A DNA stretch of 64,000 nt. Origin: an uncultured Thermoanaerobaculia bacterium. GTDB lineage: Bacteria; Acidobacteriota; UBA4820; DSQY01. The stretch lies in contig CAZPSH010000006.1 in NCBI GenBank assembly GCA_964589625.1, forward strand, positions 21,922-85,921, in the 5' to 3' direction. A program made the translations under genes and the position numbers. This document shows positions 1 to 4,185 of this stretch, one piece after another; the stretch's first letter is position 1; every line of letters starts with the position of its first letter. The notes beneath the pieces are model-generated. The model had not been told where the DNA came from and did not search any database. It saw only the letters and a program-made list of their open reading frames with translations.

Positions 1-2
1 TC

Positions 3-30
3 TTGACATCGAACGGTAAGGGTCTATATT
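3..30 (+). promoter_or_regulatory. sigma70-like promoter (TTGACA, 16-nt spacer, TATATT) upstream of the kamA leader
   Basis: Near-consensus -35 TTGACA at 3-8 and -10 TATATT at 25-30, read directly; about 265 nt upstream of the kamA start. Confidence 0.4.
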
Positions 31-295
31 TCCCGTAAGTCGTAGCGTGCGCGGCGCATCGTCGTGGGCGGCGGCTGGTCTAGAGGAGGAGGTCGGGAGA
101 CGAGAGTCTTCCGTCTGAGAATGGAAGAGGGAAATGTCAGGAGCCTGCGTGCGCACAGGCACCGAGGGGTTTTGAGCCCCTCGCCGGCGGTGCCGTCCTC
201 GCCTCTTCCGGGCGAGGCTTTTTCTTTGATGGGCCGGAATCCTGGGCTCTGCGCGGCGCTCTTTCGCGGGAACGGATTCCCGCGGGGAGGAGACC
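31..295 (+). promoter_or_regulatory. Long structured 5' leader of the kamA operon; candidate riboswitch or attenuator (possibly lysine-responsive)
   Basis: About 265-nt untranslated leader containing nested hairpins (GGCACCG..CGGTGCC enclosing GAGGGG..CCCCTC) followed by an intrinsic terminator. The 5' segment AGAGGAGGAGG can pair with CCTCGCCTCT, which is also the 5' half of the terminator stem, giving an ON-switch topology. Weak resemblance to L-box motifs (AGAGG.., GAGAnGAGAGU, CACCGAGG). Confidence 0.35.
197..227 (+). terminator. Intrinsic terminator inside the kamA leader (stem CCTCGCC/GGCGAGG, loop TCTTCCG, then CTTTTTCTTT)
   Basis: Perfect 7-bp GC-rich stem plus T-rich tract, 70 nt upstream of the kamA ATG; the position implies transcription attenuation. 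Confidence 0.5.
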
Positions 296-1552
296 ATGCT
301 CGCGAATGAGGCGCCCGCGCGAGGAGCGGGCGGCCGGGCCCAGTTCTTTCCGGAGGCGACCGACGCCGAATGGAACGATTGGCGGTGGCAGTACAGGAAC
401 CGCGTCCGCGACCTGGACGTCCTGTCCCGGCTCCTTCCCCTGACCGCCGCCGAATACAAGCAGCTCAAGCTCCTGGGACCTCGCCTTCACCTCGGGATCC
501 CCCCCTACTACCTCAGCCTCATCGACCCGCAGGACCCGGACGATCCCGTGCGGCGCCAAGCCGTGCCCTCGCCTGCCGAGTTCCTTCCCCAGCATCCCGG
601 ACTCGTGGATCCGCTGGCCGAGGACAACCACATGGCCGTGGAGGGCCTCGTCCACAAGTACCCAGACCGCGCCCTCTTCATCGCCACCAACATGTGTCCC
701 ATGTACTGCCGGCACTGCACGCGGCGCCGCGAATGGGACGAAGGCGAGAAGCCCAAAAACCGCGGTCAGCTCGACCGCATGATCGGGTACATTCGTGAGA
801 CGCCCCAGATCCGGGACGTGATCTTTTCCGGCGGGGATCCCCTCTCCCTGCCCCTTTCGGTGCTCGATTACTGCCTCTCCGAGCTTCGGAAGATCCCCCA
901 CGTGGAGATCATCCGAATCGGGACGCGCTACCCGGTGGTCCTGCCCCAGCGGATCACACAGGACCTAACGAACCTCCTCTCCCGCCACCTCCCCCTCTGG
1001 GTCCACACCCACTTCAACCATCCCAACGAAATCACACCCGAGTCCTCCGAAGCCTGCCGGCGCATCCAGCGCGCGGGCGTTCCCATGAACAACCAGAGCG
1101 TCCTGCTCAGGGGCGTCAACGACAGCGCAGAGACCATGCTCCGGCTGTGCCATGGGCTTCTGCGCATCGGGGTTCGGCCCTACTACCTCTTCCAGTGCGA
1201 CCCGGTCCGGGGAGCCGAGCACCTGCGCACCTCCGTCTGGACGGGCGTCGAGATCCTGGAGAAGATGCGGGGGCACACCTCGGGCTTCGCGGTACCCACC
1301 TTCGTGGTGGACACCGAGGGCGGCGGGAAGATCCCCCTCGGTCCCACGTACCACCTGTATTCCACCGAGGACGCCTTGGTCCTGCGCAACTACGAGGGGC
1401 GGATCTTCCAGTACCGCAACCCCGCACCTCCTCCTCCGAGGAAACAGCGCCGGGCGCCCGGCCTCCCCTTCGAGGAAGCCGACAAGCCCCGCAAGCCGCG
1501 CCTCGTGAAGCGGGACCGGACGGTCGTCCATGCGAATCGGGCTGACGTTTGA
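296..1552 (+). CDS. kamA: L-lysine 2,3-aminomutase (radical SAM, PLP-dependent; KamA/AblA family)
   Basis: 418 aa. Radical-SAM motif CPMYCRHCTRRR. Collinear with clostridial KamA over the whole length (DAEWNDWRWQ.RN, PYYLSLIDP.DP.DPVRRQ, FNHPNEIT, NQSVLLRGVND, PYYLFQCD, VPTFVVD..GGGK); these motifs were recalled from memory, not searched. Confidence 0.9.
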   Translation: MLANEAPARGAGGRAQFFPEATDAEWNDWRWQYRNRVRDLDVLSRLLPLTAAEYKQLKLLGPRLHLGIPPYYLSLIDPQDPDDPVRRQAVPSPAEFLPQHPGLVDPLAEDNHMAVEGLVHKYPDRALFIATNMCPMYCRHCTRRREWDEGEKPKNRGQLDRMIGYIRETPQIRDVIFSGGDPLSLPLSVLDYCLSELRKIPHVEIIRIGTRYPVVLPQRITQDLTNLLSRHLPLWVHTHFNHPNEITPESSEACRRIQRAGVPMNNQSVLLRGVNDSAETMLRLCHGLLRIGVRPYYLFQCDPVRGAEHLRTSVWTGVEILEKMRGHTSGFAVPTFVVDTEGGGKIPLGPTYHLYSTEDALVLRNYEGRIFQYRNPAPPPPRKQRRAPGLPFEEADKPRKPRLVKRDRTVVHANRADV

Positions 1553-2525
1553 TCTCAAGCCGCCGGCGTGCGAACCGGCGGACGGGCAACCCGACGATCT
1601 CTATGAGGAATTCGACCCGCCCGAAACCGTGGGCGCCATCGCCTCCGCCATCGAGTCCCTCGGCCACGAGGTCGTTCCTCTCGGAGGCGGCCGGCCCTTC
1701 CTCGAAAAGGCGCTTGCCGAGCGCCTGGACTTCGTCTTCAACATCGCCGAAGGACGGGGGACGCTCCGCAGCCGCGAGGCCCAGGTACCCTCCGTCCTCG
1801 AGATGCTGGGCATCCCCTACGCCCTGTCCGACCCCCTCACGCTGGCCATAAGCCTGGACAAAGCCCTCACCAAACGCCTCGTGGCCTTCTCCGGCGTGGC
1901 CGTACCGGCGGACCTCCTCGTGCGCCGCGCCGCCGACCTCGACGGCGTGGAGAGGCTCCGATTTCCCTGCATCGCCAAACCGGCGTACGAGGGCTCCTCC
2001 AAGGGAATCCGCGACACGTCTGTGGTCCGGAGCCCGGAGGAGGCTCGCCGCCACGTGGAGGCCACCCTCCGCGTCTACGGGCAGCCCGTCCTTCTGGAGG
2101 AGTTCGTCTCGGGCGATGAGTACACGGTGGGCGTGGTGGGCAACGACCCGCCTCGCGCCATCGGTGCCATGCGCATTCGACCCAAGGCGGGCCCCCACCC
2201 GGACTTTGTATACTCCGTCGAGGTGAAGCGGGATTGGAGAAACCGGGTGGCCTACGACGTGCCGCCTCCCCTGGAGCCTCCACTCCTGATGCGGCTGTAC
2301 TCCGATGCGGTTCTCGCCTTCGAGGCACTGGAGTGCCGCGACGCGGCCCGAGTGGATTTCCGGTTGCGGGACGGGCGCCCCGTCTTCCTGGAAATCAACC
2401 CCCTTCCAGGTCTCTCCCCGATCTACGGAGACCTTCCCATCCTCGCACGGGGGATGGGAATCCCCTACCCGAAGCTGATGGAGGCCATTCTCAACGCGGC
2501 GCTGGCGCGCTGCGGCTTGGCCTGA
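1530..2525 (+). CDS. ATP-grasp ligase, D-alanine--D-alanine ligase family (paralog 1)
   Basis: 331 aa. Ddl-like motifs: FPCIAKPAYEGSSKGI, EEFVSGDEYTVGVVG, ARVDFRLRDGRPVFLEINPLPG, and an N-terminal Ddl-like domain. Start overlaps the kamA 3' end, indicating translational coupling. Confidence 0.75.
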   Translation: MRIGLTFDLKPPACEPADGQPDDLYEEFDPPETVGAIASAIESLGHEVVPLGGGRPFLEKALAERLDFVFNIAEGRGTLRSREAQVPSVLEMLGIPYALSDPLTLAISLDKALTKRLVAFSGVAVPADLLVRRAADLDGVERLRFPCIAKPAYEGSSKGIRDTSVVRSPEEARRHVEATLRVYGQPVLLEEFVSGDEYTVGVVGNDPPRAIGAMRIRPKAGPHPDFVYSVEVKRDWRNRVAYDVPPPLEPPLLMRLYSDAVLAFEALECRDAARVDFRLRDGRPVFLEINPLPGLSPIYGDLPILARGMGIPYPKLMEAILNAALARCGLA

Positions 2526-2554
2526 ACGTTCCTCTCTCACGTGGGAGCGCCGTC

Positions 2555-3673
2555 ATGAGCCAGACTCCCCAGGACCGGTCCCTCTCTCCCCCGGGGCACC
2601 AGGCCGCCCCGAAACCCTCTTCCGCCGAGTGGGAGGGGGAACAGCTCCGGATCTTCACGCTCCGGCGGAAGCCCGTCTTCGTCCTCTACAACGACTTCGA
2701 CAGCGACCTGGACGGAGGCATCGCCGAACGGGCCGTCCTCGAAACCGTCGAGGGGGTGTGCCGCGCCCTCGATGAAGGGGGGCGACAGGTGGAGAGGGTC
2801 CCCCTCGTGCCACCCCTCTCCGGGGCGGCCCGTTCGCTGGAGTCCCTCCCCAAGGGCTCCACCGTCTTCAACCTCTTCGAAGGGTTTGCCGACGACCCCC
2901 CTAGCGAAGTGGCCCTTGCCATCCACCTCCGGACCTTGAGGCTCCGCTCCACGGGATGTCCGCCCCTTTCCCTCCACCTGGGCCTCTACAAGGCCATCAC
3001 CAAGCGCTTTCTCCAGGGGGCGGGCCTTCCCACCGCCCCCTTCCGCGTTTACGCACGCTCCAGCGAGGCCCAGGAAGCTCCCCCCTTTGGTTTTCCCGCC
3101 TTTCTCAAACCCGCCGCCGAGGACGCGAGCCACGGCATCCAGGCCGAGAACCTCGTGCAGGATCAGGAGGACCTTCAAAGGCGGGTGCGCCTTCTCCTGG
3201 AGAGATTCCCTGCGGGAGTCCTGGCGGAACCCTTCCTCCCGGGACGGGAACTGAACTGCTCCGTCGTGGAGACGCCCGACGGAACCGTGGCGCTCCCCCC
3301 CTCGCTCGTAAACTACGAGGAGATGCCCACCTCCCATCCCAAGGTCCTGACCTTCGACGCGAAATGGGCCGAGGAGAGCGAGGCCTATCGGTCAACGCCG
3401 ACGGTCTGCCCGGCCCCGGTGGAACCGGGATTGATCCGCCGCATCCAAGGGCTCGCCCTCGAGGCCTACTCGGCCCTCGGGTGCCGGAGTTACGCCCGCG
3501 TGGATTTCAGGGAGGACCGGGAGGGGAACCTGCAGATCCTCGAGGTGAACCCGAATCCCGATTTCTCCCCGTCCGCCGGGCTGGCCAAGCAGGCCAAGGC
3601 CCACGGTTGGGACTACGCCGAACTCACCCTCCGGGTGCTCGCGGCGGCCGAGGTGAACGAGCCATGGACCTGA
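2555..3673 (+). CDS. ATP-grasp ligase, D-alanine--D-alanine ligase family (paralog 2)
   Basis: About 372 aa from ATG 2555 (GGGAG 8 nt upstream). Motifs FPAFLKPAAEDASHGI, EPFLPGRELNCSVVE, ARVDFREDREGNLQILEVNPNPDFSP. Confidence 0.75.
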   Translation: MSQTPQDRSLSPPGHQAAPKPSSAEWEGEQLRIFTLRRKPVFVLYNDFDSDLDGGIAERAVLETVEGVCRALDEGGRQVERVPLVPPLSGAARSLESLPKGSTVFNLFEGFADDPPSEVALAIHLRTLRLRSTGCPPLSLHLGLYKAITKRFLQGAGLPTAPFRVYARSSEAQEAPPFGFPAFLKPAAEDASHGIQAENLVQDQEDLQRRVRLLLERFPAGVLAEPFLPGRELNCSVVETPDGTVALPPSLVNYEEMPTSHPKVLTFDAKWAEESEAYRSTPTVCPAPVEPGLIRRIQGLALEAYSALGCRSYARVDFREDREGNLQILEVNPNPDFSPSAGLAKQAKAHGWDYAELTLRVLAAAEVNEPWT

Positions 3674-4185
3674 TCCTGAGAGCGCTCCAGCCCGGGGACC
3701 GTCCCCGGATTGCCTCCCTGCTCCGTTCCGCGAAAGTGTTCCGCGAGGACGAGGTGGACGTGGCCCTGGAACTCGTGGACGCCGTCCTGGGCCGGCCCGA
3801 CCACCCCGACTACCGATTCGCCGTCGCCGCCGCCGGCGACGAAGTGGCGGGCTACGCCTGCTGGGGCCCCACCCCCTGCACCCTCGGGACCTTCGACCTC
3901 TACTGGATCGCCGCCTCGCCCGCCTATCAGGGAAAGGGCGTCGGCCGTCTCCTCCTCTCCCACGCCGAAGCCGACATGGCGGCGAGGGGCGCCCGAATCT
4001 GCGTGATCGAGACCTCGTCCCTTCCCCGGTACTCTCCCGCACGGGACTTCTACCTCCGGATGGGCTACCGGGAAGAGGCCCGCCTGACGGAGTTCTACGC
4101 CCCAGGGGACGACAAGATCGTCTTCGTGCGAGACCCCTGCGGTTCCAGGGAACAAAGGGTCCCCCCCCTTGCTCCCGGCCCGTAA
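3664..4185 (+). CDS. GNAT family N-acetyltransferase (possible AblB-like beta-lysine acetyltransferase)
   Basis: 173 aa; acetyl-CoA binding region QGKGVGRLLL. ATG overlaps the stop of the upstream ligase (ATGGACCTGA). Confidence 0.75.
   Translation: MDLILRALQPGDRPRIASLLRSAKVFREDEVDVALELVDAVLGRPDHPDYRFAVAAAGDEVAGYACWGPTPCTLGTFDLYWIAASPAYQGKGVGRLLLSHAEADMAARGARICVIETSSLPRYSPARDFYLRMGYREEARLTEFYAPGDDKIVFVRDPCGSREQRVPPLAPGP

Follow-up and report, generated by a model that had tools for sequence, protein, structure and literature searches.

How is an operon expressed when the only promoter visible in front of it leads into an intrinsic terminator? The question is raised by the extreme left end of a 64,000-nucleotide (nt) stretch of DNA from an Acidobacteriota metagenome-assembled genome (contig CAZPSH010000006.1; the whole stretch is called the window here). 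There, a long leader precedes kamA, which encodes a KamA-family radical SAM aminomutase (positions 296-1552, plus strand) and is the first gene downstream of it. An earlier reading of the same letters (the original prediction) took this leader for a riboswitch, possibly one responding to lysine. Our best reading is that it is a so far undescribed member of the leader open reading frame (ORF) attenuator kind. We give somewhat better than even chances to the proposal that positions 1-309 form a ribosome-dependent attenuator and translational coupling device for the operon kamA-ddl-ddl-GNAT (ddl, D-Ala-D-Ala-ligase-like ATP-grasp gene; GNAT, acetyltransferase gene). A literature search for the product of the kamA/ATP-grasp cluster, or for a described kamA leader, returned nothing relevant.

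The promoter and the terminator are found as originally predicted. The near-consensus sigma70-type promoter occupies positions 3-30 (-35 box TTGACA at 3-8, 16-nt spacer, -10 box TATATT at 25-30; all leader features lie on the plus strand). In a promoter scan it matched the consensus at 11 of 12 positions and was the one such site in 3 kb, against 0.1 expected. Transcription would start at about 36-38, within the conserved CCGTAAGT. The terminator at 197-227 has the G+C-rich hairpin and directly adjoining U tract of an intrinsic terminator: a stem of eight pairs, six of them G-C (197-204 with 210-217), and a 5-nt loop (205-209), then CUUUUUCUUU, with a hairpin free energy of -14.4 kcal/mol and the T-tract CTTTTTCTTT at 218-227. 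The kamA ribosome-binding site (RBS) GGGGAGGAG (284-292) and start codon (ATG, 296-298) also stand where they had been placed, at a distance of 57 nt between T-tract and RBS and not 70 nt. No second promoter-like site was found at 228-295. These observations support the view that transcription of kamA from the only visible promoter must read through the in-leader terminator. The -35 box overlaps TGA (4-6), the apparent stop codon of an upstream EamA-family transporter gene, so that promoter and leader fill the whole intergenic space. The same overlap is seen in the related locus L161 (about 1234-1236), and EamA homology is also present upstream in L001 (JBFLVU010000091), whose KamA is 99% identical to that of the window.

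Relatives of the leader were reached via KamA proteins of 62-77% identity. Eleven further leaders were recovered, making 12 with the window, and without near-identical copies the set amounts to about ten lineages (L161, L002, L003, L004, L005, L165/L167, L166, L171, L172 and L177). Every recovered leader precedes kamA-ddl-ddl(-GNAT); on its 5′ side there is usually a gene for an EamA transporter, and the distance from the -10 box to the kamA ATG varies only between 246 and 284 nt. In the 11 relatives both promoter hexamers stay at the same place, and so does the 3′ half of the spacer, which is rich in A and G. Also conserved are YAAG where transcription presumably starts, one GGAG, the block GARAATGGA....GAGCAACC, the terminator-hairpin arm (G)GCCUCGC with its partner, and GGGAGG before the kamA ATG. 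Whole-leader alignment with MAFFT followed by RNAalifold misaligned the window and gave an uninformative structure, and anchored folding of each element was used instead. The elements then follow one another in the order P0, variable linker, GGAG(G), P2, in-frame hairpins, terminator, P5. Taken singly, the terminator hairpin, P5, P2 and P0 have unusual stability. The terminator hairpin with its 5′ arm was found in 11 of the 12 leaders (mean z -3.4; hairpin z-scores are means against dinucleotide shuffles) and belongs to the minimum free energy (MFE) structure of the full leader in all 11 tested. Thus far the original prediction holds: a conserved cis-acting leader with an in-leader terminator stands ahead of kamA.

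The leader is confined to kamA-ddl-ddl operons, which we count in favour of the proposed device. It is absent from over 150 kamA loci belonging to Chloroflexi and further phyla, from acidobacterial kamA genes lacking ddl (L174, L175, L081), and from L173 and L179, whose KamA bears a fused N-terminal extension. An nhmmer search found no second copy in the window or in 179 loci (1.18 Mb). The acidobacterial kamA genes without ddl and GNAT (L174 2397-2500, L175 2447-2500, L081) lie 54-104 nt after EamA, with OmpA and TPR genes directly 3′. In four relatives, a sigma54-type promoter (TGGCAC-N5-TTGC) is seen between the leader hairpin and kamA (L003 3957-3971, L005 3917-3931, L166 3955-3969, L171 209-223), its GC element 30-37 nt upstream of the kamA ATG. 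The pattern has just 11 occurrences in the 1.18 Mb searched and is absent from the window.

The best-conserved block of the leader is GAGAATGGA..GAGCAACC. Read as codons, this is the start of an ORF of 62 codons that runs from ATG 121 to TGA 307-309 (MEEGNVRSLRAH...), in a region first described as untranslated. The block reads ATG GAN NNN GAG CAA CCN CCN AGT, that is M-E/D-x-E/D-Q-P-P-S, and its ATG is invariant across leaders. From the ATG to 24 nt before kamA, 11 non-redundant leaders contain no stop in the ORF frame versus 11 and 8 in the other two; upstream of the ATG no frame is open (9, 6 and 9 stops in 11 leaders). In codons 2-9 the first, second and third positions have mean column entropies of 0.90, 0.92 and 1.67 bits, with patterns such as GA[N], CA[AG] (CAA/CAG) and CC[AGT] (CCA/CCG/CCT). 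These codons look coding because the variation is mainly at the third position. In addition, the ATG is separated from the terminator arm by 71, 74 or 77 nt in 10 of the 12 leaders, i.e. by steps of 3 only (the distances for the window and L003 were worked out by hand). The frame is 51-65 codons long among leaders. Taken together, the comparison argues for a leader ORF that is probably translated, and constraint seems to bear on the act of translation and on the first nine or so codons only. The stretches that had been likened to elements of the lysine riboswitch (L-box) fall in this block, which behaves like leader-ORF codons. The N-terminus itself has drifted in the window lineage (MEEGNVRS in the window, MEEGQVRS in L001, MKEKPERS in L161).

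The region preceding the ATG is arranged in a way that could serve initiation. At the extreme 5′ end of the transcript, hairpin P0 (38-76) may act as a 5′ stabiliser. In most of the 12 leaders a hairpin of this type starts right after YAAG (mean z -1.45), with arms as different as GUUGGAA/UUCCAAC, GUCGAA/UUCGAC, GCCGAA/UUCGGC and GCCGG/CCGGC. The purine tract AGAGGAGGAGG, originally placed at 45-55, is actually at 82-92 and offers a Shine-Dalgarno (SD)-like GGAGG for the leader ORF. Between this tract and the ATG lies P2 (94-113; CGGGAGAC, GAGA loop, GUCUUCCG). In all 12 leaders GGAG(G) adjoins or overlaps the 5′ side of a P2-type hairpin (mean z -1.6), which ends 4-9 nt upstream of the ATG and is built from unrelated stems (GCCGGGA/UCCCGGC, GGCGGG/CCCGCC, GGGUGG/CCACCC, GGAGUGG/CCAUUCC). 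The distance from GGAGG to ATG is about 4-10 nt with P2 folded and 25-35 nt unfolded, and folding of the 5′ domains leaves the ATG unpaired. P2 may bridge the GGAGG to the leader ATG, as in the hairpin-bridged ribosome-binding sites of phage T4 genes 25 and 38.

From its ATG the ORF runs through P3, P4, the terminator (codons 26-36) and P5, and overlaps the start of kamA by 14 nt. P3 pairs GCCUG (143-147) with CAGGC (156-160). P4, just 5′ of the terminator, is the nested hairpin of the original prediction; it exists, at 158-194 and not at about 153-193, with an inner stem at 163-183 and outer arms GGCACC (158-163) and GGUGCC (189-194). The P3 and P4 sequences are common to the window and L161 only, and other relatives have different hairpins at this place, e.g. 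GGUUUCC/GGAAACC or GGCCUC/GAGGCC (mean z of the frame-body hairpins -1.0). A role as pause hairpin would be speculation.

The 3′ end of the frame is tied to kamA. Relative to the kamA ATG, the frame stops between -20 and +32 nt in 11 of 12 lineages. It ends on the kamA start itself in L166 (TGATG), L172 (TAATG) and L171 (TAA-ATG), 20 nt upstream of it in L003, and 9-32 nt past it in the window, L161, L002, L004, L005 and L165/L167; in L177 the leader frame is fused in frame to kamA. Close to this point stands P5 (265-284; CGCGGGAA, CGGA loop, UUCCCGCG), which directly adjoins the kamA SD; GGGAGG is found 5-8 nt upstream of the kamA ATG in all relatives. P5 was recovered in 12 of 12 leaders by covariance model R1 (mean z -2.1). 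Its cells are paired in 73% of cases versus 39-51% with the partner slid, five of eight pairs change on both sides, and its covariation score was reached by 9 of 500 shuffles, figures that lean towards structure because the alignment was fitted to the model itself. The helices of P0, P2 and P5 all covary among leaders, with stems that differ wholly between lineages and loops that show no conservation. The covariance-model pair test concerns P5 only, the MAFFT alignments of P2 and of the terminator being out of register. In L165 (about 3930-4000), L167 and L177, pyrimidine tracts 5′ of P5, CUCUCCCC or CUCCCCCC, can pair with the kamA SD GGGAGG. Such CUCUCCC-type tracts can in principle mask the kamA RBS in these three unless the leader is translated; in the window, P5 is extended into the SD by three G-U pairs only.

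From these features a mechanism can be proposed. The strong sigma70-type promoter would start an mRNA at about 36-38 that begins with the protective hairpin P0. P2 would bring the GGAGG next to ATG 121, allowing translation of the 62-codon ORF across the two in-frame hairpins and then across the terminator. A ribosome close behind RNA polymerase would cover the 5′ arm of the terminator, no hairpin would form, and transcription would read through into kamA. If leader translation were late, blocked or stalled, the hairpin would form and transcription would stop at about 225. The same ribosome would melt P5 beside the kamA SD, open the SD-pairing tracts of L165, L167 and L177, and terminate at 307-309 on top of the kamA start, coupling kamA translation to leader translation. 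No conserved antiterminator was found; a ribosome sitting on the hairpin arm would be the simplest conserved means to prevent termination, and we propose ribosome-dependent attenuation. The comparison of leaders brings out the promoter, the hairpins including that of the terminator, and an open frame that begins like coding sequence and stops at the kamA start. The part played by the position of the ribosome in termination, and the direction of control, we infer by analogy with known attenuators.

Several observations weigh against this interpretation. Support for translation of the ORF is wholly comparative, and the relatives are not independent (about 7-8 lineages). At this high G+C content frames stay open by chance, in 15-36% of the mononucleotide shuffles of any one sequence; multiplied over 11 leaders these probabilities give 4e-7, a value that overstates significance since the sequences are related. 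Conservation of the peptide stops at about residue 9. Selection on the peptide body was considered and rejected, the synonymous excess being inconsistent between close pairs (9 synonymous codons versus 2-3 in the other frames for window/L161, 1 versus 6-7 for L003/L005). The hairpin arm is read in a different frame in L004 and L172. The GGAGG is distant from its ATG unless bridged by P2, and in the window, L161, L166 and L171 a GGAG lies within the P2 stem. The leaders yielded neither a run of regulatory codons nor a pause run of the UTP type, and no conserved antiterminator. Finally, only 5 of 12 leaders (window, L161, L002, L177, L003) have a good U tract; in all others it is weak or missing, being poor in L165/L167 and absent from L172. 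Because it is poor or absent in some leaders while the hairpin arm is invariant, termination would not be the whole function, and the sigma54-type promoter directly after the hairpin in four relatives likewise weakens termination as sole function. L172 (1237-1487) has retained P2 and the ATG block, together with a hairpin (CUCGCC..GGCGGGG) that has a 16-nt loop and no U tract and lies only about 25 nt before kamA; it looks like a purely translational version of the device.

The invariance of the terminator-hairpin arm is also the starting point for a different explanation, to which we give a low probability: an RNA-binding protein would recognise the arm GGCCUCGC, its hairpin or P2, and would set termination, access to the kamA RBS, or both, with leader translation incidental or a helper. 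(G)GCCUCGC is kept in 11 leaders whatever the state of the U tract, which is textbook-like in some and lacking in another; this suggests that the arm has a function besides termination that depends on its sequence, and the four sigma54-type promoters point to extra protein regulators at the locus. However, no candidate gene for an RNA-binding regulator was seen in the conserved neighbourhood EamA-kamA-ddl-ddl-GNAT-OmpA-TPR, and the open frame with its codon-like start would be left unexplained. The original prediction had listed a protein-mediated attenuator among its alternatives. This comes closer to our proposal than its riboswitch does, with the ribosome as the likely protein machine.

Could the leader nevertheless be a riboswitch? 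This would be one of an undescribed class, responding to lysine, beta-lysine, an osmolyte-related signal or cyclic di-AMP; the bound ligand would select between the terminator and another fold, and the open frame would be a by-product of G+C content. The architecture is compatible with it: a leader of this size, with its hairpins in unchanged order and a terminator, recurs in about ten lineages and each time precedes this operon, and its variable 3′ part resembles an expression platform (terminator, SD-masking tracts in L165/L167/L177, no U tract in L172). On the other hand, known families give no support. We ran cmscan with Rfam 15 at E<=10 on positions 1-3000 and 1-300 of the window and on two divergent relatives, L165 (3725-4010) and L003 (3745-4010). 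Neither the lysine (RF00168), glycine (RF00504) and ydaO (RF00379) families nor any other cis-regulatory family of Rfam matched the window leader or those of L165 and L003. The best scores within the leader were 13.1 bits for gyrA RNA (gathering threshold 45) and 22.8 bits for mascRNA on the minus strand (gathering threshold 42.5). Neither hit came back in L165 or L003, and the gyrA resemblance, which happens to touch the two blocks of conservation, was set aside as fortuitous. The supposed L-box-like stretches thus found no counterpart even at this threshold, and the MFE of the whole leader is not unusual (z = -1.56).

A binding core is equally hard to place. Conservation is almost confined to the promoter, one GGAG, the block around the ATG, the arms of the hairpins and the SD of kamA. 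From the start site to the ATG it is limited to YAAG and GGAG, leaving next to no conserved unpaired positions from which such a core could form. Inside the leader, the block with the highest conservation shows third-position wobble, and stops are lacking in one frame only. The central element of the original prediction, a long-range P1-type helix between the purine tract and CCUCGCCUCU, the upstream half of the terminator stem, does not stand: in the window the duplex energy for pairing with 197-206 is no better than with shuffled 5′ parts (z -1.1). In 11 of the 12 leaders the best duplex of the 5′ part with the terminator arm has a z of -1.6 to +1.0, with partners at non-homologous positions. 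A long-range antiterminator was accordingly rejected as chance-level and not conserved; the related genomes keep the leader and not this helix. When the first 38-70 nt of the frame were masked as by an early ribosome, the terminator was lost only in the window and L004 and stayed in the MFE structure in 9 of 11. In the window the 5′ purine tract then beats the terminator, a result that, for the window alone, could be taken in favour of a riboswitch. As to lysine, no link to the leader was found. Lys codons are scattered (0-3 per leader peptide, none before the terminator in the window), no run of any other codon is shared, and sensing through lysine codons was rejected. Altogether we regard a riboswitch as improbable.

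The weakest explanation, a separate small RNA or small-protein gene with its own promoter and terminator and with kamA served by another promoter, could draw on the near-consensus promoter and strong terminator about 190 nt apart and on the sigma54-type promoter of L003, L005, L166 and L171, but is very unlikely given that 228-295 of the window is without a second promoter-like site, that the element occurs only in front of kamA in this one position and orientation and nowhere else in 1.18 Mb, that the frame stays open past the terminator to end on the kamA start, that L172 lacks a U tract, and that the unconserved peptide body makes a functional small protein unlikely. The remaining probability belongs to mixtures of the proposed mechanism with these explanations, and to unknowns.

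Among known systems, the proposed ribosome-dependent attenuator most resembles pyrBI of Escherichia coli, whose promoter-proximal leader ORF (pyrL, 44 codons) likewise extends through an intrinsic terminator ahead of the structural genes. The kamA leader has the corresponding parts: a leader ORF kept open in relatives, with a start codon and an RBS, if an unusual one, and a terminator inside the ORF and upstream of kamA. It differs in that pyrBI reads UTP through polymerase pausing at U runs, and no comparable pause run is evident here; the only UUUU noticed by eye upstream of the terminator is in the P4 loop (170-173) and is not kept in relatives. The kamA leader frame is also longer and ends on or overlaps the kamA start, it has the SD-hairpin-ATG layout and a conserved N-terminal peptide motif, and it is found in Acidobacteriota before an aminomutase operon. 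In the pyr leader the advancing ribosome inhibits termination at the pyrL terminator, and with six proline codons upstream of the pyrL hairpin, read-through in a reporter depended about 26-fold on elongation factor P (EF-P) (PMC5021804). By this precedent, translation of the kamA leader may suppress termination at 197-227.

Other attenuators are less similar. Those of trp, his and leu also combine a leader peptide and a terminator in one leader and let ribosome position decide. In contrast, their frames are short, stop before the terminator, and carry runs of cognate codons and a conserved antiterminator (2:3) hairpin. The kamA leaders have neither such a run nor a conserved antiterminator, the partners of the arm in the nascent RNA being non-homologous. 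A trp-like 1:2/2:3/3:4 scheme suggested by L171 (GGCCUC/GAGGCC/GGCCUCGCC) was not general across leaders. TnaC and SpeFL are ligand-sensing arrest peptides; a stall late in a short frame is how they prevent Rho-dependent termination. They share with the kamA leader an ORF with a short conserved motif, in a peptide conserved in part only, before an amino-acid-converting operon; the kamA leader, however, has its motif at the very N-terminus of a long frame and an intrinsic terminator. The lysine riboswitch (L-box, RF00168) resembles our leader in preceding a lysine-related gene with a structured leader and then a terminator, and differs from it by a five-helix junction and a conserved core; its covariance model matched the kamA leader at no threshold tried. 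Salmonella mgtL and mgtP are proline-codon leader ORFs, and the mgt leaders act on Rho-dependent termination via alternative stem-loops. The common point with such EF-P-related leaders is the presence of consecutive early Pro codons upstream of a terminator, in 6 of 12 kamA leaders; here there are two prolines only, and none of this in the window or L161.

This Pro-Pro motif deserves a closer look. Q-P-P-S/G occupies codons 5-8 in L002, L004, L165, L167, L172 and L177 and is possibly an EF-P- or proline-dependent slow spot in these six. Codons 5-8 of the window are AAT GTC AGG AGC (N-V-R-S), without consecutive Pro, and the motif would have decayed in this lineage. KamA proteins of Chloroflexi, Nitrospirae, Syntrophales and others carry an N-terminal extension of 40-60 residues with one or two acidic Pro-Pro motifs (EEEPPGK, EEPPS), as in L006, L033, L036, L046, L059, L063 and L064; examples of such proteins start ME...EEEPPS. 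In all, 95 of 119 KamA homologues have the motif, 70 of them in two copies (proteins P0024-P0120). The acidobacterial KamAs preceded by a leader start MLDxPAP...GR and lack it, the motif being found instead at the start of the upstream frame. In L173 and L179 it is fused to KamA and there is no leader; in L177 the leader frame is fused to kamA. By motif, length and mutual exclusivity, the leader frame looks like a detached N-terminal extension of KamA.

A further step, which we think improbable, would be to see in the acidic Pro-Pro motif (E-E/Q-P-P-S/G) a translational sensor conserved in this aminomutase clade, setting terminator read-through and enzyme translation; ribosome speed would then depend on EF-P, on proline supply or on a small molecule held by the nascent peptide. 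Beta-lysine is the group that modifies EF-P in gamma-proteobacteria, and a feedback loop of an EF-P-related or osmolyte pathway is therefore possible; if real, it would be built on kamA, as beta-lysine-forming enzyme, and the two ATP-grasp ligases. A search of the window and loci found no EF-P gene, which is weak evidence.

If correct, the proposed ribosome-dependent attenuator would be a natural case, from the little-studied phylum Acidobacteriota, of a leader frame that spans an intrinsic terminator and is coupled to the first gene, and the tempting label of lysine riboswitch would be corrected. It gives a handle on the control of a widespread uncharacterised set comprising a KamA-family aminomutase, two ATP-grasp enzymes and an acetyltransferase. 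An evolutionary question arises as well: one and the same acidic Pro-Pro motif is kept either in the N-terminus of the enzyme or at the start of a detached upstream frame.

Downstream of kamA, the window continues with the two ddl genes (1530-2525 and about 2522-3673) and the GNAT acetyltransferase gene, which ends at 4185; OmpA-family, TPR and ECF-sigma genes follow in that order. The trio of KamA-family aminomutase and two ATP-grasp ddl genes is seen in more than 140 loci (L006-L160) of several phyla, with GNAT added in Acidobacteria. The KamA of the window scores 471 bits on the AblA lysine 2,3-aminomutase model, short of the cut-off of 525, and only the general KamA-family model accepts it. 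D293 and D330 of the solved Clostridium enzyme (2A5H), which we take to be the aspartates holding the epsilon-amino group of lysine, have their equivalents in the window protein (FQCD and FVVD). Since both are conserved, lysine is still a plausible substrate. KamA ends in a basic C-terminal tail (about 1419-1552; ..NPAPPPPRKQRR..LPFEE..RPRLVKR..ANR), the outline of which is kept among acidobacterial homologues, and a PPPP run within this tail is found in the window protein and P0002 only.

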